Assembly: GCA_902774115.1 (NCBI GenBank)
Contig: CACYHH010000003.1
Span: 63,580-127,579, forward strand
DNA: 64,000 nt
Reading direction: 5' to 3'
Source of the DNA: an uncultured Spirochaetales bacterium
GTDB taxonomy: Bacteria > UBP6 > UBA1177
The notes beneath the pieces were generated by a model. It ran no database searches and was not told the DNA's origin. It saw nothing but the letters and a program-made list of their open reading frames with translations. This document shows positions 18,717 to 48,675 of this stretch, piece by piece. Within the stretch, counting starts at the first letter, position 1. Every line of letters starts with the position of its first letter. The position numbers were made by a program, and so were the translations under genes.

Positions 18717-19214
18717 TTATTCAAGATTTCCGGATTCGGACTGTTTTTTCGAAAGTTTCTGCTTTTCCCTGATTTCACGGAAGAAACCTGATAAAAGTTC
18801 GGCAGACTCTACAGCCAGAATCCCTTCAACGACTTCCACCCTGTGATTTAAGCGCTCGTCTTCGAGAAGCGTGTAGAGCGATCTCACTCCGCCTGCTTTC
18901 GGATCTCTTGCACCGAAATAAACTTTGGGGATCCGAGACTGCACTATCGCGCCGCTGCACATGATGCAGGGCTCCAAAGTGACATAAAGCTCGCAATCCT
19001 CAAGCCGCCAGCTTTTTAAATAAGCTGCAGCTTCGCTTATTGCCTCGATTTCCGCATGGGAAAGGGGGGACTGGGCGGATTCGCGTTTGTTGAATCCTTT
19101 TCCGATTACTCTGTTTTCAAAGACCACGACTGCGCCGACGGGAACTTCGCCCATCTCTCTCGCCTTTTCAGCAAGGTCAAGCGCAATTTTCATATATTCG
19201 GTTTCTCTTGTCAT
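18717..19214 (-). CDS. tadA: tRNA-specific adenosine deaminase TadA
   Basis: HAEIEAI...EPCIMCSGAI CDA-fold zinc motifs. The longer ORF (to 19271) would overlap tRNA-Arg, so I chose the internal start MTRETEY. Confidence 0.75.
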   Translation of the reverse strand: MTRETEYMKIALDLAEKAREMGEVPVGAVVVFENRVIGKGFNKRESAQSPLSHAEIEAISEAAAYLKSWRLEDCELYVTLEPCIMCSGAIVQSRIPKVYFGARDPKAGGVRSLYTLLEDERLNHRVEVVEGILAVESAELLSGFFREIREKQKLSKKQSESGNLE

Positions 19215-25903: not shown

Positions 25904-25906
25904 TTG

Positions 25907-26554
25907 ATGAAACTCAATTCGATTTTCCAGTCCATTCAGGGTGAAGGGCGGTTTCAAGGCTATCCTTCTGATTTTATCAGGTTTTTCGGATGCAACTTGA
26001 ATTGCATCTACTGCGACACGAAACAGACTCTTTCGGGAGATTCGTTTTACATTGAAACGCCTGAGGCAGTCGCTGAAAAAATCAATAAATCTGATATTTT
26101 AGATGTCTGCATTACCGGCGGAGAACCGCTGTGCCAGGAGGAAGAGCTTCTTAAACTTCTGAAACTGCTCCGCGGCAAAAGAATATCAGTCGAAACCAAC
26201 GGAAGTATAGAGCTTGAGCCGCTTTACCGTGAATTTTATGCGGCAAAAACAGATTCTGAGCTCTATTTTTCGACAGACTGGAAAACTCCCGGTTCCGGAA
26301 ATCCAGTTTTTGACGAAAGAAATATCGGTTTTTTGAGAAAAAGCGGTGCAGGGTGGATCAAATTTGTGACCGGAACAGTTGAAGATCTTGATTTTATTGA
26401 TGAAAAACTTCCGATGCTTGACGGGATCGAAACATACTTAAGTCCTGTTTTCGAGAATGGAAAAGAGTGGTTTTCGGCAGTTGAAAAGTTCGTCAAAAGT
26501 CACAAAAATATCAGACTGCAGCTCCAGCTGCACAAAATTCTGGGGATAGAATAA
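25907..26554 (+). CDS. queE: 7-carboxy-7-deazaguanine synthase (radical SAM QueE)
   Basis: SIFQSIQGEG...FIRFFGCNLNCIYCDTKQT closely parallels E. coli QueE ([36 protein letters not shown]). Confidence 0.65.
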   Translation: MKLNSIFQSIQGEGRFQGYPSDFIRFFGCNLNCIYCDTKQTLSGDSFYIETPEAVAEKINKSDILDVCITGGEPLCQEEELLKLLKLLRGKRISVETNGSIELEPLYREFYAAKTDSELYFSTDWKTPGSGNPVFDERNIGFLRKSGAGWIKFVTGTVEDLDFIDEKLPMLDGIETYLSPVFENGKEWFSAVEKFVKSHKNIRLQLQLHKILGIE

Positions 26555-26568
26555 CAAAGAGGTTTAGC

Positions 26569-27681
26569 ATGGATAAAGCGTATTTTTCTTATGAAAATTT
26601 CAAAAAAGACGATATCCGCGGCGTTGACGCCAAGTTCGAGGCGCAGAAAATCGCGTTTGCTCCGCTTGCGTTTCAGGCGGTAAACTCGATGCTTGAGCTC
26701 GGAATAATGAAAATCATCGAGGATGCTGGCGATGATGGCATTACTCTTGAAAAAATTGCGGAAAAATCGGGAATTTCGAAATATGGTCTTTCGGTTATCT
26801 GCGAAATGGCTCTCGGTATGAATGTCCTCAAACTTTCGGCGGATTCAAACCCTGAAAACGAGAAATTCGTTCTCGGAAAAATCGGCTGGATGCTCCTTGA
26901 AGACGACCTGACCCGCGTCAATTTCCGCTTTACGAACGATATCTGCTTTCAGGGCTCTTTTGATTTGGAAAAATCGATAAAAAACGGCAAGCCGGAAGGG
27001 CTCAAAGTCTTCGGCGACCAGTGGGTCACGGTTTACGAAGCGCTTTCAACGCTGCCAGAAAAGGCGAAAAAAAGCTGGTTCGATTTTGACCATTTTTATT
27101 CCGATATAGCTTTTCCTGAGGCTCTTCCGATAGTTTTTGCCGACAAACCGAAGACGATAGTCGATATCGGCGGTAATACTGCGAAATGGTCGATTGCGTG
27201 CTGCAAATACGATCCGGATGTCAAAATGATAATCGCCGATCTGCCGGGGCAGACGAAAGTCGCTGCCGAAAACGCGAAAAAAGAGGGACTCTCTGAAAGG
27301 ATTTCTTACTGCGAAGGAAACATTCTCCGCGAATCGACGAAACTGCCGGAAAACCCCGACACTTTCTGGATGAGCCAGTTCCTTGACTGTTTCTCGCTTC
27401 ATCAGATAACGAAAATCATGAAAAAAATACACGAAGTTGCTGGCGAAAAGACGAAAGTTTACGTTCTTGAACCGCTTTGGGACTGCCAGAGATTCAATGC
27501 CGCGGCATATTCGCTTCAGGCAACTTCACTTTACTTCACCTGCATTGCAAACGGAAACAGCAAGATGTACCGCTTCAAAGAGCTCTGCGACGCGATCTGC
27601 GAAGGCGGTTTCAGACTTGAATGCTCGCACCACAATCTTGGTTCGAACTCTTATTCACTGCTTGAATTCAAAAAGGCATGA
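26569..27681 (+). CDS. SAM-dependent O-methyltransferase (class I, OMT family 2 with N-terminal dimerisation/wHTH domain)
   Basis: Dimerisation domain (KIAFAPLAFQAVNSMLELGI). SAM motif IVDIGGNTAKWS...IADLP. Confidence 0.6.
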   Translation: MDKAYFSYENFKKDDIRGVDAKFEAQKIAFAPLAFQAVNSMLELGIMKIIEDAGDDGITLEKIAEKSGISKYGLSVICEMALGMNVLKLSADSNPENEKFVLGKIGWMLLEDDLTRVNFRFTNDICFQGSFDLEKSIKNGKPEGLKVFGDQWVTVYEALSTLPEKAKKSWFDFDHFYSDIAFPEALPIVFADKPKTIVDIGGNTAKWSIACCKYDPDVKMIIADLPGQTKVAAENAKKEGLSERISYCEGNILRESTKLPENPDTFWMSQFLDCFSLHQITKIMKKIHEVAGEKTKVYVLEPLWDCQRFNAAAYSLQATSLYFTCIANGNSKMYRFKELCDAICEGGFRLECSHHNLGSNSYSLLEFKKA

Positions 27682-28343
27682 GCGAAGTTTTTGTTTCAAA
27701 ACCGGTGATGTGGGCACCCGGACTTGAAGATATCCCGGAAAAATGGGAAAAGTGGCTTTCATGCGATGAAACAATCGAAAAATCGAAGGCTGCTCCGAAA
27801 CTTGAATACACTGAACCGCTTTTCAGGCGCAGGCTGAGCCAGATTTCGAAGATGACAGTTCACGTCGTCCACGAACTTCTTGGAAAGGAGAAGTTTGATA
27901 AAGATACAAAAATTGTTTTTGTCTCGCTCCGTGGGGAAATTGCCCGCGAATTTTCGATAAATCAGGGGATAATCGAGGAAAAAACGATACTTCCTGCTGG
28001 ATTTTCACTTTCGGTTTTCAATACTCCTGTAGCCCTTGCAACGATCGCTTTAGGGCTCACGGGCGGATATTCTGCGGTGTATCCCTCAAAAAGTGATTTT
28101 TCGTCGGCTTTGAAAAACGCTTTTGCCCCGGTTTTATGCGGCGATGAAGAAAAAATCGTTCTTGTTTATGCCGACGAACTTGTTCCCGAGTGTTACGGCG
28201 TTGATTCAATTCCGCTTGCATTCGCGGCGGTGCTAAGCGCTGAAAAAACGGAAACCTCAGTCAAAATTGATGATTTCGAGAGTATAAAATCACCGGATGA
28301 CTTTTTGAAACACCTTCTTGAAGCGGGGAGGAGCGATGTTTAG
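27678..28343 (+). CDS. beta-ketoacyl-synthase N-terminal-like domain protein (chain-length-factor-like, no active-site Cys)
   Basis: ILPAGFSLSVFNTPVALATIALGLTGGYSAVYP...VLVYADE resembles the KS-N core without the catalytic Cys. ATGA overlap with the upstream methyltransferase. Confidence 0.4.
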   Translation: MSEVFVSKPVMWAPGLEDIPEKWEKWLSCDETIEKSKAAPKLEYTEPLFRRRLSQISKMTVHVVHELLGKEKFDKDTKIVFVSLRGEIAREFSINQGIIEEKTILPAGFSLSVFNTPVALATIALGLTGGYSAVYPSKSDFSSALKNAFAPVLCGDEEKIVLVYADELVPECYGVDSIPLAFAAVLSAEKTETSVKIDDFESIKSPDDFLKHLLEAGRSDV

Positions 28344-29175
28344 AATCCCTGAAAATCTGCCCAAAATCAGGAATATATTTTTCTACTGCTACCATTCGTT
28401 AGGCAAGATCGCGGCGATACTTTACATCGTTTTCGGCTCGATGGTCATCGGTTTTATCATTTTCCCTTTCATCAGGCTCTTTTCAAAAGATAAAAACGAT
28501 TTTTATGTGAAGGCGAGAAGGTATGTCTCCAACGTTTTCAAACGGTTCCTTTTCATGCTCAAAATAACCGACATCGTCGAGATGAGAGTGCCTGAAATGG
28601 AGAAACTGCGTAACCTGAAAGGGAAAGTTATCGTCGCGAACCACCCGTCGCTTCTCGATTTTGTCTGCATGACGGCGCTTGTTCCGAACGCTAACTGCAT
28701 AGTACGGGCAAATCTCACAAGAACGCCTTATGTCGGCATAATCAGCCAGATCTACATCACTAACGACGAGAATTATGACGATTTGTTCGAAGCGTGCAAA
28801 GAAGATCTCGACAACGGCAACAACGTCCTGATTTTTCCTGAAGGAACGCGCACTCCGCGCTTCAAAAGGAACATCTACCAGAAAGGTGCCGCAAGAATCG
28901 CGCTCCACGCGAAATGCGACGTTCTCCCTGTTTTCATCGGCGGAAGCGACAAATACGGCCTCGGCAAGCACGATCCGCTCTTTTCCTACAATCCCGTTGA
29001 AGAGTATTTTTACGATTTCCAGCTTCTTCCCGAAATAAAAAGTTCCGACTACGAAGGAATGCCTTCACCAGCCGCGGCAAAGCGCATCACCGGCAAAATC
29101 GAGGAAGAGATCCTCGCCGCCGATGCCGAATACAGAAAAACCAACACCAAGTGCAGAACCTTCAATAATGTGTGA
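28336..29175 (+). CDS. lysophospholipid acyltransferase (LPLAT/AGPAT family) membrane protein
   Basis: NHPSLLD (HX4D) and FPEGTRT motifs. N-terminal TM. Overlaps the upstream gene. Confidence 0.7.
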   Translation: MFRIPENLPKIRNIFFYCYHSLGKIAAILYIVFGSMVIGFIIFPFIRLFSKDKNDFYVKARRYVSNVFKRFLFMLKITDIVEMRVPEMEKLRNLKGKVIVANHPSLLDFVCMTALVPNANCIVRANLTRTPYVGIISQIYITNDENYDDLFEACKEDLDNGNNVLIFPEGTRTPRFKRNIYQKGAARIALHAKCDVLPVFIGGSDKYGLGKHDPLFSYNPVEEYFYDFQLLPEIKSSDYEGMPSPAAAKRITGKIEEEILAADAEYRKTNTKCRTFNNV

Positions 29176-29214
29176 GCTAAGACGAGTCTGGTTTTTTTTA
29201 CTTTGGAGAATGTC

Positions 29215-30063
29215 ATGAAAAAATCGATTATTGTTATAGCAATGCTTGCAGTTGCAACAACACTTTTTGCAGAAAATGAAAGCATGTCATGCGAATCGGA
29301 TCTTGGAAAATGCACTTACACAGTTTCCAATGAATATTTTACAAGAGAATGTTATTGCCGTGACGGCAGAGAAAAAATTTCTGCTTCGGAAGAAATCGGA
29401 AATATGCCGAAAAAAGAGGAATGTGAACTTGAACTTGCCGATATTTGCAGCGAATCAGGATTTATCTGTGAAAACAATGCTGGAGAATGTCATTTGGAAG
29501 CAAGCGGAGAGTATTACTGCTATTGCATTGGCAGAAAAACTCAAAGAGGAAGAGAGGAAAATGTCAGTGCGGAAGGGTGCACCGCAGTTTTGGAGAAAGA
29601 ATGCGGAACAAAGATTGCAACTCCGAGATTCGTTTGTGCCGATTCTGAAATTCTCAATGAATGTGTTTCTTATGAAAGAACTCTTGCAAATTCATGTCTG
29701 GAAGCAATTACTGATGAAGAACTTGAAGCTGCTCTTGACACTCCTATAATCGGGGCTGTAGGGATAGAAGGAGAAATGGCGAGCATTATTGCTCAATGTT
29801 GTGAGAACTCAATCTTGAGAGAAAAACATCAGACTTTTTCAGAGTGTATTGAAACTGCTGAAAGTTGTGCAAACAAAGAATGCTGTGAACCGTGCGGTCT
29901 TATTCTTGACGAAAGTGAATGGATGGATGGTGCTCCGGAAGAAGGTGCTACCGATGTAACTAATACCGAAGCTCCGACAACCGGTGCAACACCGGAAGAC
30001 ACTGCTGACGGCGGAAAAAAGGATGAAAGCAAATCCGACGGCTGTTCGATGCTGTTCATCTAA
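29215..30063 (+). CDS. secreted cysteine-rich protein (about 28 Cys), hypothetical
   Basis: Signal peptide MKKSIIVIAMLAVATTLFA. Repeated C-x-C / YCYC / CCE patterns. Acidic T/P-rich tail. Confidence 0.4.
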   Translation: MKKSIIVIAMLAVATTLFAENESMSCESDLGKCTYTVSNEYFTRECYCRDGREKISASEEIGNMPKKEECELELADICSESGFICENNAGECHLEASGEYYCYCIGRKTQRGREENVSAEGCTAVLEKECGTKIATPRFVCADSEILNECVSYERTLANSCLEAITDEELEAALDTPIIGAVGIEGEMASIIAQCCENSILREKHQTFSECIETAESCANKECCEPCGLILDESEWMDGAPEEGATDVTNTEAPTTGATPEDTADGGKKDESKSDGCSMLFI

Positions 30064-30163: not shown

Positions 30164-30478
30164 GTGATCAAGATTGAAAAATTAAGATTTTATTACGAAA
30201 ACGATAAGGTTTTTGTTACGGAACATGCCGCGGAGCGTTTCCGTCAGCGCGGTATAAAGACGAAAGATATTCGTGCTGTAATAAGCAATGGCGAAATTAT
30301 TGAGCAATATCCGGATGATTTTCCTTTTCCGAGTTGTCTGATAACCGGATATGATGAAAAGGGTAGTTGTATTCATGTCTGTATGAGCGACGAAGGAAGC
30401 TGTGCCAGAATTGTTACTGCATATTACCCTGATAAAGAACTTTGGAGCGAAGATTTTAGGCAAAGATTGGAGAAATAG
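30164..30478 (+). CDS. DUF4258-family type II toxin
   Basis: TEHAAERFRQRGI...IIEQYPDDFPFPSCLITGY... matches the DUF4258 pattern. GTG start. Confidence 0.7.
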   Translation: MIKIEKLRFYYENDKVFVTEHAAERFRQRGIKTKDIRAVISNGEIIEQYPDDFPFPSCLITGYDEKGSCIHVCMSDEGSCARIVTAYYPDKELWSEDFRQRLEK

Positions 30479-30479
30479 G

Positions 30480-30710
30480 ATGAAATGTTTGGTATGCAAA
30501 GCGGAAGAAATGAGTGAGAGCACCAGCACTTATTTTACTCAGGTCGATAACTGCTATGTTATTATTGAAAATGTTCCATGTTTTAAGTGCAGGCAGTGCG
30601 GAGCGGTCGTTTACCCGATGTCCGTTCAGGAAACGATAGATGACATTTTGGAAAAAGTCAGAAACATTGCAAGCAAAATCTTTATCATGGATTATTCCAA
30701 AGTAGCATAA
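30480..30710 (+). CDS. MqsA/YgiT-type zinc-finger antitoxin
   Basis: MKCLVCKAEEM...IENVPCFKCRQCG forms a CxxC...CxxC zinc ribbon, the YgiT-type pattern. Starts 1 nt after the toxin stop. Confidence 0.7.
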   Translation: MKCLVCKAEEMSESTSTYFTQVDNCYVIIENVPCFKCRQCGAVVYPMSVQETIDDILEKVRNIASKIFIMDYSKVA

Positions 30711-45352: not shown

Positions 45353-47836
45353 TTACGATTTCAGTTTTTCTTCGATTGCTTCTTTTACGGCTGAAGCGAG
45401 TTCTTCGCGGGTTTTTCCTTCCGGATTTATCGGCGGAAGATATGTGACATTGATTCTTTTGAAAGGGTGGGGAAATTTTCTGTTGCGGGGAAACGCTTCA
45501 AATGCACCGTCAATCGCAACAGGAATGACCGGAACGCTGATTTCGCAGGCAAGGAGGGAGAATGTCTGCTTGAAATCGCCCAAACCGCCGTCGCGGCTGC
45601 GTGTTCCTTCCGGGAAAATCAGGACGTTGCGCCCTTTTTTGAGAACTGATGCCATCCGTTTTATCGAATCGACGATCTCTTCGTCTTCACGCATGATTAT
45701 GATGTTGTTGCGTTTTGCCATGTATCGGCGCCACCACTGCTTGAAGTGCTTTTCCTTGGCGAAGCAGTAGGTGCGTTTGAACTCTTTTGCCGGAATTTTT
45801 GCCAGCACGAAAAGGGCATCTACCACGCTCTGGTGGTTTGCGGCGAAGATGACCGGTCCTTCGGGAATATTTTCAGTTCCGAAAAAGCGGACTTTGAAGA
45901 AAGTTCTGACCGCGCTTACAAGAGAAAATCTAAGAAGTCTGTGGTAAAACGCGCTTCTCGGTAGCTCGATGTTGTTGATATTTTCCCTGAGAACCGTTTT
46001 CCAGTCCTGTTTTGCGCTGTTAACTTTTCTGCTGCTTCTTTCGGCTGTGAAACCGGCGATTTTGCGAACGGTTGCCATATTCTGAATGTCGGTTTCGCTG
46101 ATTTTTATGCCGAATTCCGAATTGATGAACGATGCCAGTTCGATTTTGTCGAGCGAGTCGAGCCCTAAATCGATTTCGATATGGTCATCCGGAAAGACCT
46201 TTTTTTCGCTTGTTTTCTCAATATATTCAGCGATTTTTGCATATTCTTTGGTGCCGGGGATCTCGCACTTTGCCCGTTTTTCGTCCTTGTTTTTAAGAAA
46301 TTCCTCAAGTTTGAAACGCTGGATTTTGTCGAGTCTCGTCCGCGGCAGCGGCTGGTTCGTTAAGGTAAAATCGAGTATTTTTTTATGGTGTGAAGCCGTT
46401 GAGTTGTATCTGTCGATGATTTCCCAGCGTATGTATTCTTCTAAATTCGGGATCTGCCGCTCTGCAAGTATTTTTTCATCAGGTCTGATGATGGCGCAGA
46501 GAACGCCGTTTTTCGCTATGACCGCGATTTCTTTGATCAAAGTGTCGCTTCTTTCGATATTCTGCTCGATTTCGGTCGGATTTACGTTTTTGCCGTTGCC
46601 GAGAATGATGATTTCTTTTTTTCTGCCGGTGATGCAGAGGTTTCCCTCTTTGTCGAAGTGACCGAGATCGCCGGTGTAAAGCCATCCGTCACGCAGAACT
46701 TCGGCAGTTTCTTCGGGGCGGTTGTAGTAGCCTTTCATTATGTTTTTTCCGGTCGCAACAATCTCTCCGTCAACGATTTTTACCGTTCCTTTCGAAAGTT
46801 CGGTTCCGACGCATCCCGCTTTGCCTTTGCCGGGGCGGGGGAAGGTTATCATCGGGCTTGCTTCGGTCATCCCGTAGCCGTCTCCGATCGAAAAACCGAG
46901 CACTTTGAAGCAGTTCCAGACCTCGGGATCGAGCTTCGCGCCGCCGCAGATGAAGTGTTTAAGATTGCCGCCGAATTTTTTTGCGACCGATTTGAAGATT
47001 ATTTTTGAAAAAGCGGTGCTGTTCGCGATTTTTGCTGTTCTGAATATAGCTTTCGTGAGAAATCCCGAGTTTATTTTCTGCATGATCCCTTTCATCATCA
47101 TTTCGTAGAATCTGGGGACTGCAAGGATCATCGTCGGGTGGCTTTTTTCCATCATTTTGGCAATGTCGGAAGCCTGGAGCGACGGGCAGATTACGGCTTT
47201 TCCTCCGCCTAAAAGAGGAGCTACGACCGTTCCTAAAAGCGGAAAGATGTGGTGCAGCGGAAGAATCATCAGAACGACATCTGAGCTTGTGTAGTAGCCG
47301 CATTCCTGAAGTGCGTCCATGTTTGCCATGATGTTGCGGCATGAAAGCATGACCCCTTTCGGTGAGCCCGTTGTGCCGGAAGTGTAGATTATAAGTGACG
47401 TTTTTTCCTTGTCTTCGACATCGAAATCTGCGGCTTCGTATTTGGAAATGTCGCCCTTTATTTCCTCGAAAACGATCTTTCTTATCTCAGTTTTACCGGA
47501 AATTTCTATTGCTTTTCCGACATTTTCACGCACCTTTTCCGAGAAGCAGATCACGTCCGGCGAACAGTCGTTGATGATGTAGGCGATTTCTTCCGGAGTG
47601 CTCATGAAATCGACAGGAACGACGATCCCGTCCGATTTCCAGATGCCGTAGAACGAATAAATATATTCAGGTCTGTTTTCGCTTATGATAAGGACTCTTT
47701 TTCCGTCGAGATTGCCGAGAATATCAGAAAAAAACGCGACTGTTTTGAGCAGATCCGAGTATGTGATTTCTGAATTTTCTGTAACTATCGCGATGTTGCT
47801 GGTGTTTTTCAGGAACATGCCTCTCTCCTCCGGCAA
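45353..47836 (-). CDS. tri-domain acyl-AMP ligase - acyl carrier protein - lysophospholipid acyltransferase fusion
   Basis: AMP-binding IIYTSGTTGSPKGV. Internal PP-binding DLGLDSLDKIELASFI. C-terminal LPLAT NHQSVVD (HX4D) and FPEGTRS. Confidence 0.7.
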   Translation of the reverse strand: MPEERGMFLKNTSNIAIVTENSEITYSDLLKTVAFFSDILGNLDGKRVLIISENRPEYIYSFYGIWKSDGIVVPVDFMSTPEEIAYIINDCSPDVICFSEKVRENVGKAIEISGKTEIRKIVFEEIKGDISKYEAADFDVEDKEKTSLIIYTSGTTGSPKGVMLSCRNIMANMDALQECGYYTSSDVVLMILPLHHIFPLLGTVVAPLLGGGKAVICPSLQASDIAKMMEKSHPTMILAVPRFYEMMMKGIMQKINSGFLTKAIFRTAKIANSTAFSKIIFKSVAKKFGGNLKHFICGGAKLDPEVWNCFKVLGFSIGDGYGMTEASPMITFPRPGKGKAGCVGTELSKGTVKIVDGEIVATGKNIMKGYYNRPEETAEVLRDGWLYTGDLGHFDKEGNLCITGRKKEIIILGNGKNVNPTEIEQNIERSDTLIKEIAVIAKNGVLCAIIRPDEKILAERQIPNLEEYIRWEIIDRYNSTASHHKKILDFTLTNQPLPRTRLDKIQRFKLEEFLKNKDEKRAKCEIPGTKEYAKIAEYIEKTSEKKVFPDDHIEIDLGLDSLDKIELASFINSEFGIKISETDIQNMATVRKIAGFTAERSSRKVNSAKQDWKTVLRENINNIELPRSAFYHRLLRFSLVSAVRTFFKVRFFGTENIPEGPVIFAANHQSVVDALFVLAKIPAKEFKRTYCFAKEKHFKQWWRRYMAKRNNIIIMREDEEIVDSIKRMASVLKKGRNVLIFPEGTRSRDGGLGDFKQTFSLLACEISVPVIPVAIDGAFEAFPRNRKFPHPFKRINVTYLPPINPEGKTREELASAVKEAIEEKLKS

Positions 47837-47964: not shown

Positions 47965-48675
47965 ATGAAATTTTCGCTTCTTATTCCGGTTTACAACGAG
48001 GAAAAAACACTTGATCTGATTTTTTCAAGAGTTTTCGAGCTTGAAAAATCACCTCTGATCGATGAACTTGAAGTTATCGCGGTTGATGACTGTTCAAAAG
48101 ATAACTCTTTGAATTTATTGAAAAAATATGAATCGGACGGCAGAATAAAGCTGTTTCATCACGAAAAAAATCAGGGGAAAGGGGCGGCAGTCAGAACGGC
48201 TATGGCGAATGCGACGGGCGATTATGTCGTTTTTCAGGACGCCGACCTTGAATATGACCCGCAGGATCTGCTGAAAATGCTCGATTATGCTGTCAAAAAC
48301 AATGTCGATATCCTTTACGGCAGCCGTTTCCTGGGGAAAAAGACGAGCCCCCTCGGTAAATTTCACTATTTAGTGAACGCAGGACTTACGACTTTCTCAA
48401 ATCTTTTCACCGGTCTGAATCTCACCGACATGGAAACATGCTATAAAATGTTCAAAGGCGAAGTTTTGAAAGAAATAAACATCGAAGAAGACCGCTTCGG
48501 TCTCGAACCTGAAATCACGGCTAAAGCGGCAAAAATCTGCGCCGCAAAAAATCTTGCAGTCAAGGAAATTCCGATCAGCTATAACCCGCGCAAATCGGAT
48601 GAAGGCAAAAAAATCGGAGCCAAAGACGGTCTTCGTGCAGTCTATATCATCCTGAAATACGGATTGTTCGAATAA
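47965..48675 (+). CDS. family-2 glycosyltransferase (polyprenol-phosphate sugar transferase, ArnC/DPM1-like)
   Basis: VIAVDDCSKDNS and VFQDADLEYDP (DxD). 236 aa. Confidence 0.65.
   Translation: MKFSLLIPVYNEEKTLDLIFSRVFELEKSPLIDELEVIAVDDCSKDNSLNLLKKYESDGRIKLFHHEKNQGKGAAVRTAMANATGDYVVFQDADLEYDPQDLLKMLDYAVKNNVDILYGSRFLGKKTSPLGKFHYLVNAGLTTFSNLFTGLNLTDMETCYKMFKGEVLKEINIEEDRFGLEPEITAKAAKICAAKNLAVKEIPISYNPRKSDEGKKIGAKDGLRAVYIILKYGLFE

Follow-up and report, generated by a model that had tools for sequence, protein, structure and literature searches.

The three enzyme genes described here very probably represent the apeB-apeC-apeD arm of an aryl-polyene-type type II PKS/lipid cluster, which a rearrangement in the UBP6 rumen lineage detached from the remaining cluster genes. 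They lie in a 64-kb window, the whole stretch of DNA that was analysed, from a rumen bacterium of the candidate phylum UBP6. Positions 26569-30063 of this window hold four ORFs, all in the same direction, and a fifth gene abuts them upstream:

25904 to 26554, + strand: QueE-like radical SAM gene, abutting apeB (PF04055; TIGR03963, 126 bits)
26569 to 27681, + strand: apeB-like SAM-dependent methyltransferase, 370 aa (PF00891, PF21212, PF08100 and FlxJ family match)
27678 to 28343, + strand: apeC-like half-size ketosynthase/chain-length factor (CLF), 221 aa (PF13723)
28336 to 29175, + strand: apeD-like lysophospholipid acyltransferase (LPLAT), 279 aa, with an N-terminal TM helix (PF01553)
29203 or 29215 to 30063, + strand: secreted, Cys-rich member of a multi-copy protein family confined to UBP6, 286 or 282 aa (no match in Pfam or NCBIfam)

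The first and second genes share an ATGA overlap (27678-27681) and the second and third an 8-bp overlap (28336-28343), both read directly from the sequence, and 27-39 nt, depending on the start, lie between the apeD-like gene and the Cys-rich gene. The chain of four genes described in the sequence-only reading is therefore borne out by the ORF coordinates and by direct reading. The apeD-like ORF has 279 aa from its ATG, and an alternative TTG start at 28318 would give 285 aa. Profile searches matched the three enzymes to PF00891 (methyltransferase), PF13723 (CLF, 107.9 bits for a cut-off of 25) and PF01553 (LPLAT, 61 bits), and the earlier comparison with the methyltransferase/CLF/LPLAT core of aryl-polyene and flexirubin type II PKS clusters was correct as a homology call.

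The methyltransferase carries, in addition to PF00891, the dimerisation domains PF21212 and PF08100 (Pfam scan), and is 43.7% identical to ApeB of E. coli CFT073 over 359 aa (E=7e-100). It also matches the flexirubin-associated FlxJ family of the Bacteroidota (NCBIfam NF053543) from end to end (positions 2-352 of 352; E=1.8e-130) and a structural-genomics methyltransferase (PDB 3dp7, E=2e-92), although its score of 435 bits falls below the equivalog cut-off of 560 bits. No dialkylresorcinol (darA/darB) or tyrosine ammonia-lyase genes were noticed in the loci examined. On these scores, the protein is a family-level relative of ApeB/FlxJ and not a curated equivalog. Its previous description as a class-I O-methyltransferase holds for the fold, but this name describes the fold only, since ApeB, the orthologue whose activity has been characterised, places methyl groups on ring carbons of the aryl head group (10.1101/2020.12.19.423268).

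The 221-aa protein is of the ApeC type, that is, half-size (about 200-240 aa) with a single thiolase fold. Its top matches among solved structures are the ApeC proteins of X. doucetiae (6qsp_B, E=6.6e-11) and A. baumannii (7f28_A), in which the CLF is likewise half-size, and it is 26% identical to E. coli CFT073 ApeC over 221 aa. The family alignment of 18 CLF homologues contains no invariant Cys, and the segment FSLSVFNTP aligns with FAMSVHNSS of ApeC. The profile alignment of this family against the E. coli ApeO KS was unusable, so that the absence of a catalytic Cys, already proposed from the sequence and upheld here together with the PF13723 match, is read from the lack of a conserved Cys. 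In aromatic type II PKS such as that of actinorhodin, a non-catalytic KS-like partner (KS-beta beside KS-alpha) also sets chain length, but actinorhodin-type CLFs are full-length with two thiolase folds, whereas the CLF of the window is of the single-fold ApeC type with about 220 aa (PMC8358021).

The assignment of the third protein as a lysophospholipid acyltransferase was likewise right: besides PF01553, its translation contains both the HX4D (NHPSLLD) and the FPEGTR (FPEGTRT) motifs. It is 33% identical to E. coli CFT073 ApeD over 156 aa (E=5e-25) and also matches the PlsC structure 5kym (E=3e-12).

No KS, KR, DH, thioesterase or free-standing ACP gene was found in the 64-kb window by Pfam scans and six-frame tblastn, in agreement with the earlier statement that these partners are missing from it. 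The Pfam scans covered 46 of the 53 window ORFs, with most of the remaining ORFs at 17.7-38.3 kb covered through precomputed Pfam entries of a near-identical contig (L001). The queries for the tblastn searches of the whole window were the 18 E. coli Ape proteins and Treponema cluster proteins, and in the region described here only ApeB, ApeC and ApeD matched. The sole carrier-protein domain in the window is part of a fusion of 827 aa with AMP-binding, PP-binding and acyltransferase domains (45353-47836, - strand). This fusion was rejected as the missing ApeH/ApeE: its identity to ApeH-like proteins is only about 22%, and its match is to another Treponema family (c18).

An ape cluster has been defined by the presence of apeO/R, apeE/F, apeC, apeI/P, apeQ and apeM in one locus (10.1101/2020.12.19.423268, Fig. 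1 legend). Of this core (KS, ACP, CLF, DH, KR and transporter), the window has the CLF only, plus apeB and apeD. The complete set is found in one locus in Treponema (for example L035 and L027), and collectively in UBP6 genomes (L085, L089, L095, L101).

The comparison of related genomes shows where the triad belongs. About 80 genomes of UBP6 and Treponema, counted at species level, have it as a contiguous unit with order and strand kept. It divergently adjoins apeE-F-G/H-I-J-K in about 40 Treponema species or loci, often continuing into apeL-M-N-O-P-Q-R, and in UBP6 it also stands divergently beside the E-K block (L005, L007, L008, L092, L094, L097-100 and L110-113). The adjoining block has the order ACP-ACP-ApeG/H-ApeI (PF22818)-GT2-acyltransferase-4HBT thioesterase, followed in Treponema by LolA-MMPL-DUF3261 and KS-ApeP (PF22817)-KR-KS, and the block proteins of the Treponema/UBP6 loci all match E. 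coli Ape proteins. Downstream of the triad, two of the UBP6 loci (L007 and L008) have the genes that the window also has there (a toxin-antitoxin-like pair, glycerate kinase and two hypothetical proteins), but upstream they have the E-K block.

On contig 25 (L016) of the MAG JAFYIZ01, the context of the triad is exactly that of the window, and contig 10 (L089) carries ACP-ACP-ApeH-ApeI-GT2-AT-TE beside rplU-rpmA-obg, as well as an ApeR-like KS. This is a same-genome demonstration, in one MAG, that the E-K block of the window's sub-lineage is located elsewhere, beside rplU-rpmA-obg. In other genomes with the block beside obg, ApeP-ApeQ-ApeR, a LolA-like and an MMPL gene, and an ApeO-like KS are nearby; the ApeO-like KS of one related genome (L085, 19788-20966) is 39% identical to ApeO. 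For the window's own genome, we infer the split from related species whose CLFs are 74-89% identical; none of the loci retrieved for six ApeH-type clusters, for the CLF cluster P0015 and in one cluster-member listing came from sample ERZ27280243 or MAG JAGCNV01.

The identity between UBP6 and Treponema (66-80% for ApeH, ACP and methyltransferase) could reflect shared ancestry or gene transfer. These results document a Treponema-like ape system in the candidate phylum UBP6. They also call for caution in genome mining, as the aryl-polyene clusters are here dispersed into three or four sub-loci among housekeeping genes, and therefore cluster-based detectors and single-window readers will see "orphan" pieces.

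It is unlikely that the triad is a true orphan, in which the rest of the ape pathway was lost and the three enzymes modify a membrane lipid, working with the housekeeping fatty-acid synthase or on another substrate. The lack of partner genes within 64 kb would fit such a loss, as would an ape locus prone to rearrangement, with a truncated ApeH on one contig (L110) and no fewer than five kinds of gene found upstream of the triad in UBP6. Nevertheless, JAFYIZ01, where the triad has this context, carries the partner block on a different contig, the E-K block was intact around all UBP6 ApeH clusters examined, and a half-size CLF is known to act only when paired in a heterodimer with the KS dedicated to it (PMC8358021). 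Moreover, purifying selection is strong and equal in genomes with split and with adjacent arrangements: compared with both genome types, dN/dS is 0.06-0.09 for the apeB-like, 0.13-0.20 for the apeC-like and 0.01-0.06 for the apeD-like gene. This range (0.01-0.20) indicates that the triad is functional, which favours a split pathway and leaves a novel lipid-modification module unsupported. Therefore, of the two options offered by the sequence-only reading, a split or novel pathway and a membrane-lipid module, the split stands, since relatives join the triad to the canonical cluster and JAFYIZ01 has the rest on another contig, while the membrane-lipid module found no backing.

For the detached apeBCD arm, the QueE-like radical SAM gene marks the putative rearrangement junction. 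It ends 14 nt before the apeB start, with an AAGAGG ribosome-binding site in the junction sequence, and in adjacent-type relatives a divergent intergenic region of roughly 150 bp stands in its place, together with the ACP genes. As a member of the pathway this gene was rejected: other UBP6 genomes have different genes at this place, and the Treponema loci lack it. A rearrangement at the divergent promoter region would have detached the arm and left the window's triad without an upstream intergenic region of its own, so that it would probably be transcribed by read-through from the upstream tpi-gap-pgk-FTCD-rSAM run. Consensus scans for promoters and terminators between 19.3 and 31 kb did not exceed shuffled expectation and are uninformative on operon structure, and co-transcription with the upstream genes is suggested by the 14-nt gap only.

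The roles of the three enzymes are proposed by analogy with the characterised E. coli and Xenorhabdus system (10.1101/2020.12.19.423268, PMC8253772, PMC8358021). With the partner genes presumably elsewhere in the window's own genome, as in related species, the half-size CLF would pair with an ApeO-type KS, and the pair would extend an aryl starter, carried on an ACP, to a conjugated polyene. The methyltransferase would methylate the aromatic head group, and the membrane LPLAT would attach an ACP-bound conjugated acyl chain to a lysophospholipid. The resulting lipid anchor would later be glycosylated, acylated and exported by ApeJ, ApeL and ApeM.

Compared with the ape systems of E. coli CFT073 and X. 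doucetiae (apeA-R; APELs), the ApeB, ApeC and ApeD homologues keep their order and their coupled reading frames, and the relatives hold ApeE, F, G, H, I, J, K, L, M, O, P, Q and R (as well as ApeN in Treponema). In contrast to the co-directional and contiguous E. coli genes, apeBCD is divergent from apeE onwards in Treponema/UBP6 and detached in the window's lineage. In most cases ApeG and ApeH form a fusion, ApeJ is represented by two proteins (a GT2 protein and one of 325 aa), the Treponema/UBP6 loci examined yielded no ApeA and those of UBP6 no ApeN (DUF3261), and the hosts are strict rumen anaerobes. In the papers found, Treponema aryl-polyene clusters come from automated genome mining only, without product chemistry, and the product of the spirochaete/UBP6 clusters may be an aryl polyene or another conjugated lipid.

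The fourth gene requires a separate interpretation. Its product has a signal peptide and 23 Cys, fewer than the approximately 28 first reported. Its family comprises 167 homologues, all from MAGs and only from UBP6, with at least three copies in one MAG. It is improbable that this protein is a dedicated component encoded in one operon with apeBCD, for instance a client at the cell surface or a partner resembling ApeA/ApeN. Such a role would agree with the short distance on the same strand, with the position of family members after apeD (in the window, L006, L007, L008 and L015) or after an ApeM-like MMPL gene (L101 and L102; L085-87 retain a C-terminal remnant there), and with the lack of ApeN and ApeA in UBP6 loci. 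However, other copies sit in unrelated contexts, near an AcrB-type pump or near Fic and purF, and the copy closest to the window's protein (90% identity) has no ape genes nearby. Furthermore, the gene is missing or replaced after apeD in L016, L097, L110-113 and all Treponema loci, and at orthologous positions the copies are only about 49% identical between flanking genes of 90-98% identity, a pattern that fits cassette turnover. Judging from this distribution (restricted to UBP6, multi-copy and in unrelated contexts), the Cys-rich gene is an unrelated surface-protein neighbour outside the ape module, and its earlier inclusion as a fourth member of the unit is not sustained.

The predicted structure of the Cys-rich protein has a confident core, for which Foldseek searches against the PDB returned noise only (TM of 0.16 or less), and the C-terminus KSDGCSMLFI is invariant in the family. 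Members of the family are found repeatedly next to apeD, apeM and an RND pump. A connection of another kind can be imagined, although we consider it very unlikely: the Treponema/UBP6 system might make a conjugated lipid other than the classical ROS-protective aryl polyene, and the Cys-rich proteins might form an exchangeable surface set whose C-terminal Cys is processed or anchored via that lipid and RND export. In that case, KSDGCSMLFI would be a new C-terminal sorting or lipidation signal.

Finally, that the triad itself consists of chance neighbours, namely a small-molecule O-methyltransferase, a degenerate KS fragment and a PlsC as unrelated housekeeping enzymes, is hardly credible: the flanking genes are indeed housekeeping (glycolysis, formiminotransferase-cyclodeaminase, QueE-like and glycerate kinase) and the LPLAT also matches PlsC-type models, but this reading is contradicted by the synteny, in which the methyltransferase-CLF-LPLAT order is conserved across two phylum-level lineages and linked to ape genes, by the best characterised matches being ApeB, ApeC and ApeD, and by the translational coupling through overlapping stop and start codons.

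Four plus-strand ORFs lie in tandem in the window, joined by an ATGA overlap at 27678, an 8-bp overlap at 28336-28343 and a gap of 27-39 nt after the third stop codon; both overlaps were read directly from the sequence, as the sequence-only reading had described them:

26569-27681, plus strand: apeB-like methyltransferase, 370 aa, with an O-methyltransferase fold and a dimerisation domain
27678-28343, plus strand: apeC-like half-size chain-length factor (CLF), 221 aa, PF13723 "Ketoacyl-synt_2" at 107.9 bits
28336-29175, plus strand: apeD-like lysophospholipid acyltransferase (LPLAT), 279 aa from the ATG, PF01553 acyltransferase at 61 bits
29203/29215-30063, plus strand: Cys-rich secreted protein, 286/282 aa, with a signal peptide and 23 Cys

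The HMM check matched the three enzymes to the domains anticipated for them, and the NCBIfam FlxJ-family methyltransferase model matched the first over its full length (435 bits, against a curated cut-off of 560). The proposed absence of a catalytic Cys in the CLF was confirmed, with no Cys conserved across 18 homologues. The fourth protein, credited with about 28 Cys, has 23, and no Pfam or NCBIfam match. Compared directly with the genetically characterised ape (aryl-polyene) cluster of E. coli CFT073 (gene table in PMC8253772), the methyltransferase shares 43.7% identity with ApeB over 359 aa (E=7e-100), the 221-aa protein 26% with ApeC over its whole length (E=4e-14) and the acyltransferase 33% with ApeD over 156 aa (E=5e-25). 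Among solved structures, the 221-aa protein best matches ApeC as seen in the ApeO-ApeC heterodimers from X. doucetiae (6qsp_B) and A. baumannii (7f28_A). Because of these matches, the apeB-apeC-apeD assignment holds at the homology level, and the triad appears to belong to the already known aryl-polyene type of system. The dN/dS of the three genes (0.01-0.20, against genomes with either a split or an adjacent arrangement) does not exceed that of neighbouring housekeeping genes, supporting a functional triad.

As the sequence-only reading had noted, the 64-kb window yielded no gene for a KS, KR, dehydratase or thioesterase and none for a free-standing ACP, either by Pfam (scans of 46 of the 53 called ORFs, and precomputed entries of the near-identical contig L001 for most of the remaining ones, at 17.7-38.3 kb) or by six-frame tblastn of the whole window with all 18 Ape proteins of E. 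coli and those of the Treponema clusters as queries. The sole carrier domain lies inside an 827-aa fusion of a different family (45353-47836, minus strand). This Aas-like protein combines AMP-binding and PF01553 acyltransferase domains with an embedded phosphopantetheine-binding domain; a family-2 glycosyltransferase gene (47965-48675, plus strand) diverges from it, and several Treponema loci have a relative of the fusion (645 aa, 25% identity) at a distance of 3-8 kb from the ape triad.

Aryl-polyene clusters are described as the most widespread biosynthetic gene cluster family of Gram-negative bacteria, and automated mining flagged them in a gut Treponema genome (PMC8863827). Our literature search retrieved no report of such a cluster in UBP6 and no product chemistry for any spirochaete or UBP6 ape cluster. 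Identical copies of the 221-aa protein occur on rumen metagenome contigs of up to 295 kb. In a scan of species-representative genomes, its nearest relatives (74-89% identity) belong to UBP6 rumen MAGs, including UBA1177, UBA1196 and RGIG MAGs from yak, goat and buffalo; a rumen survey placed all its UBP6 MAGs in the genus UBA1177 (PMC7820578). About 65 species of Treponema and other spirochaetes come next at 47-63% identity, T. bryantii and T. socranskii among them. The triad is contiguous, with order and strand kept, in essentially all 80 loci. In ~40 Treponema loci, flanking-ORF clustering showed that it divergently adjoins a minus-strand block, whose genes were identified by Pfam and by tblastn against the E. 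coli Ape proteins:

Minus strand: two ACPs, ApeE/F
Minus strand: membrane and AMP-binding fusion, ApeG/H
Minus strand: ApeI-like dehydratase (PF22818)
Minus strand: GT2 and a 320-aa protein, together matching ApeJ
Minus strand: 4HBT thioesterase, ApeK
Minus strand: LolA-like protein, ApeL; MMPL, ApeM; DUF3261, ApeN
In locus L035 additionally: KS (ApeO), ApeP-like dehydratase (PF22817), KR (ApeQ) and KS (ApeR)

By gene content, the Treponema locus is a canonical ape cluster with its B-C-D arm inverted. Ape proteins of UBP6 (L005-L008) and Treponema (L017-L084) share ~80% (ACP), ~70% (methyltransferase) and ~66% (ApeH) identity, unusual for different phyla, which could reflect UBP6-spirochaete kinship or horizontal transfer in the rumen.

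UBP6 holds both arrangements. In L005, L007, L008, L092, L094, L097-100 and L110-113, the triad stands beside ACP-ACP-ApeG/H-ApeI-GT2-AT-TE, and L007 and L008 also carry the window's downstream genes (a DUF4258/YgiT pair, glycerate kinase and two hypothetical proteins). The triad is instead detached, with tpi-HD-gap-pgk-FTCD-QueE-like rSAM in front of it, in the window and in L006, L013, L014 and L016. The decisive case for a split cluster is the MAG JAFYIZ01, in which contig 25 (L016) bears the triad in the window's context and contig 10 (L089) bears ACP-ACP-ApeH-ApeI-GT2-AT-TE adjoining rplU-rpmA-obg. Around other obg-associated blocks, ApeP-ApeQ-ApeR lie ~5 kb upstream (L095), and LolA-like and MMPL genes and an ApeO-like KS lie downstream (L085 and L101). 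Therefore, the pathway appears to be intact but dispersed, as seen in related genomes, one of them with the window's arrangement. The uncharacterised lipid-modification module that the sequence-only reading had also envisaged is not supported; its split pathway is, by the triad-block linkage in relatives and the separated loci of JAFYIZ01. The window does not hold all core genes in one locus; from these comparisons, it is best classed as holding a putative apeBCD arm that has become separated from the rest of a dispersed ape cluster.

The junction upstream of apeB usually lies within ~15 nt of its start (26554-26569 in the window; ~8830-8892 in L010, L012 and L015), which suggests that rearrangements have repeatedly broken the locus here. 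In the window, 14 nt with an AAGAGG ribosome-binding site separate the rSAM stop from the apeB start; the ancestral divergent promoter region would therefore be gone and read-through from upstream genes is likely, consensus scans around the triad being uninformative on this point. The gene 5' of apeB varies between close UBP6 relatives, from ACP genes and the QueE-like rSAM to, in further genomes, PNP_UDP_1, a defence-like SIR2-STAND-TPR protein or a BcrAD/DUF2229 protein. L110 and L111 encode an identical CLF beside different blocks (compared at L110 6604-7551 and L111 2513-3898), one with intact ApeG/ApeH-ApeI-GT2-AT and the other with a 315-aa truncated ApeH abutting a TonB-receptor fragment; either one strain has undergone a deletion or the assembly is chimeric.

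Compared with E. coli, the B-C-D arm is divergent in Treponema and UBP6. ApeG and ApeH are mostly a 664-677-aa fusion (L007 6148-8142, L017 6100-8133), although some UBP6 loci (L110-113) keep the membrane and AMP-binding proteins separate (205 and 461 aa). The 558-aa ApeJ corresponds to two genes, a 249-aa GT2 and a ~325-aa protein without a Pfam match (L007 4060-5780). ApeA has no counterpart in the compared loci, and no ApeN was seen in UBP6. A mechanism can be proposed from the characterised system, in which the Xenorhabdus lipids carry a 4-hydroxy-3-methyl- or 3,5-dimethylphenyl head group and deleting apeB yields desmethyl aryl polyene lipids (10.1101/2020.12.19.423268; PMC8253772; PMC8358021). 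By analogy, ApeH would load an aryl starter onto the ACP, an ApeO-type KS paired with the CLF would extend it there, and the apeB-like enzyme would methylate the aromatic head group, probably by ring C-methylation notwithstanding its "O-methyltransferase" fold name. The LPLAT would acylate a lysophospholipid at sn-2 with a conjugated chain, forming the anchor, and ApeJ, ApeL and ApeM would complete and export the lipid.

The Cys-rich gene, previously counted as part of the unit, lies outside the conserved module and appears to be an unrelated neighbour. It is missing 3' of apeD in L016, L097, L110-113 and all Treponema loci, and a copy at the orthologous site shares only ~49% identity, against 90-98% for the flanking genes. 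Its family (167 matches, all from bacterial MAGs, without a Pfam domain) is UBP6-only and multi-copy, one MAG carrying three or more members. Within the family, some copies adjoin an AcrB-type pump and others Fic and purF; a copy 90% identical to that of the window lies in a context without ape genes. Copies also lie 3' of an ApeM-like gene in L101 (20543-21472) and L102, and 11-codon C-terminal remnants, the gene body lost, mark this position in L085-87 (~18830-18863). Copies were also located at:

L106, 6001-6879
L107, 3718-4578 and 6001-6846

Members share a signal peptide, an acidic linker and ~22 invariant Cys, and their extreme C-terminus does not vary (KSDGCSMLFI); this end, ...KEESKSDGCSMLFI-stop, is not long enough to be a transmembrane sorting signal. 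AlphaFold models the core with confidence, and its fold has no match in the PDB. We read this pattern as cassette-like turnover of variable surface proteins, and the family may be such a cassette with a C-terminal tag; that it works together with the ape and RND machinery is improbable. Directly 3' of the variable gene, overlapping DUF4258 and YgiT/MqsA-type zinc-finger genes (30164-30710) form a toxin-antitoxin-like pair that keeps 94-98% identity in related UBP6 genomes.
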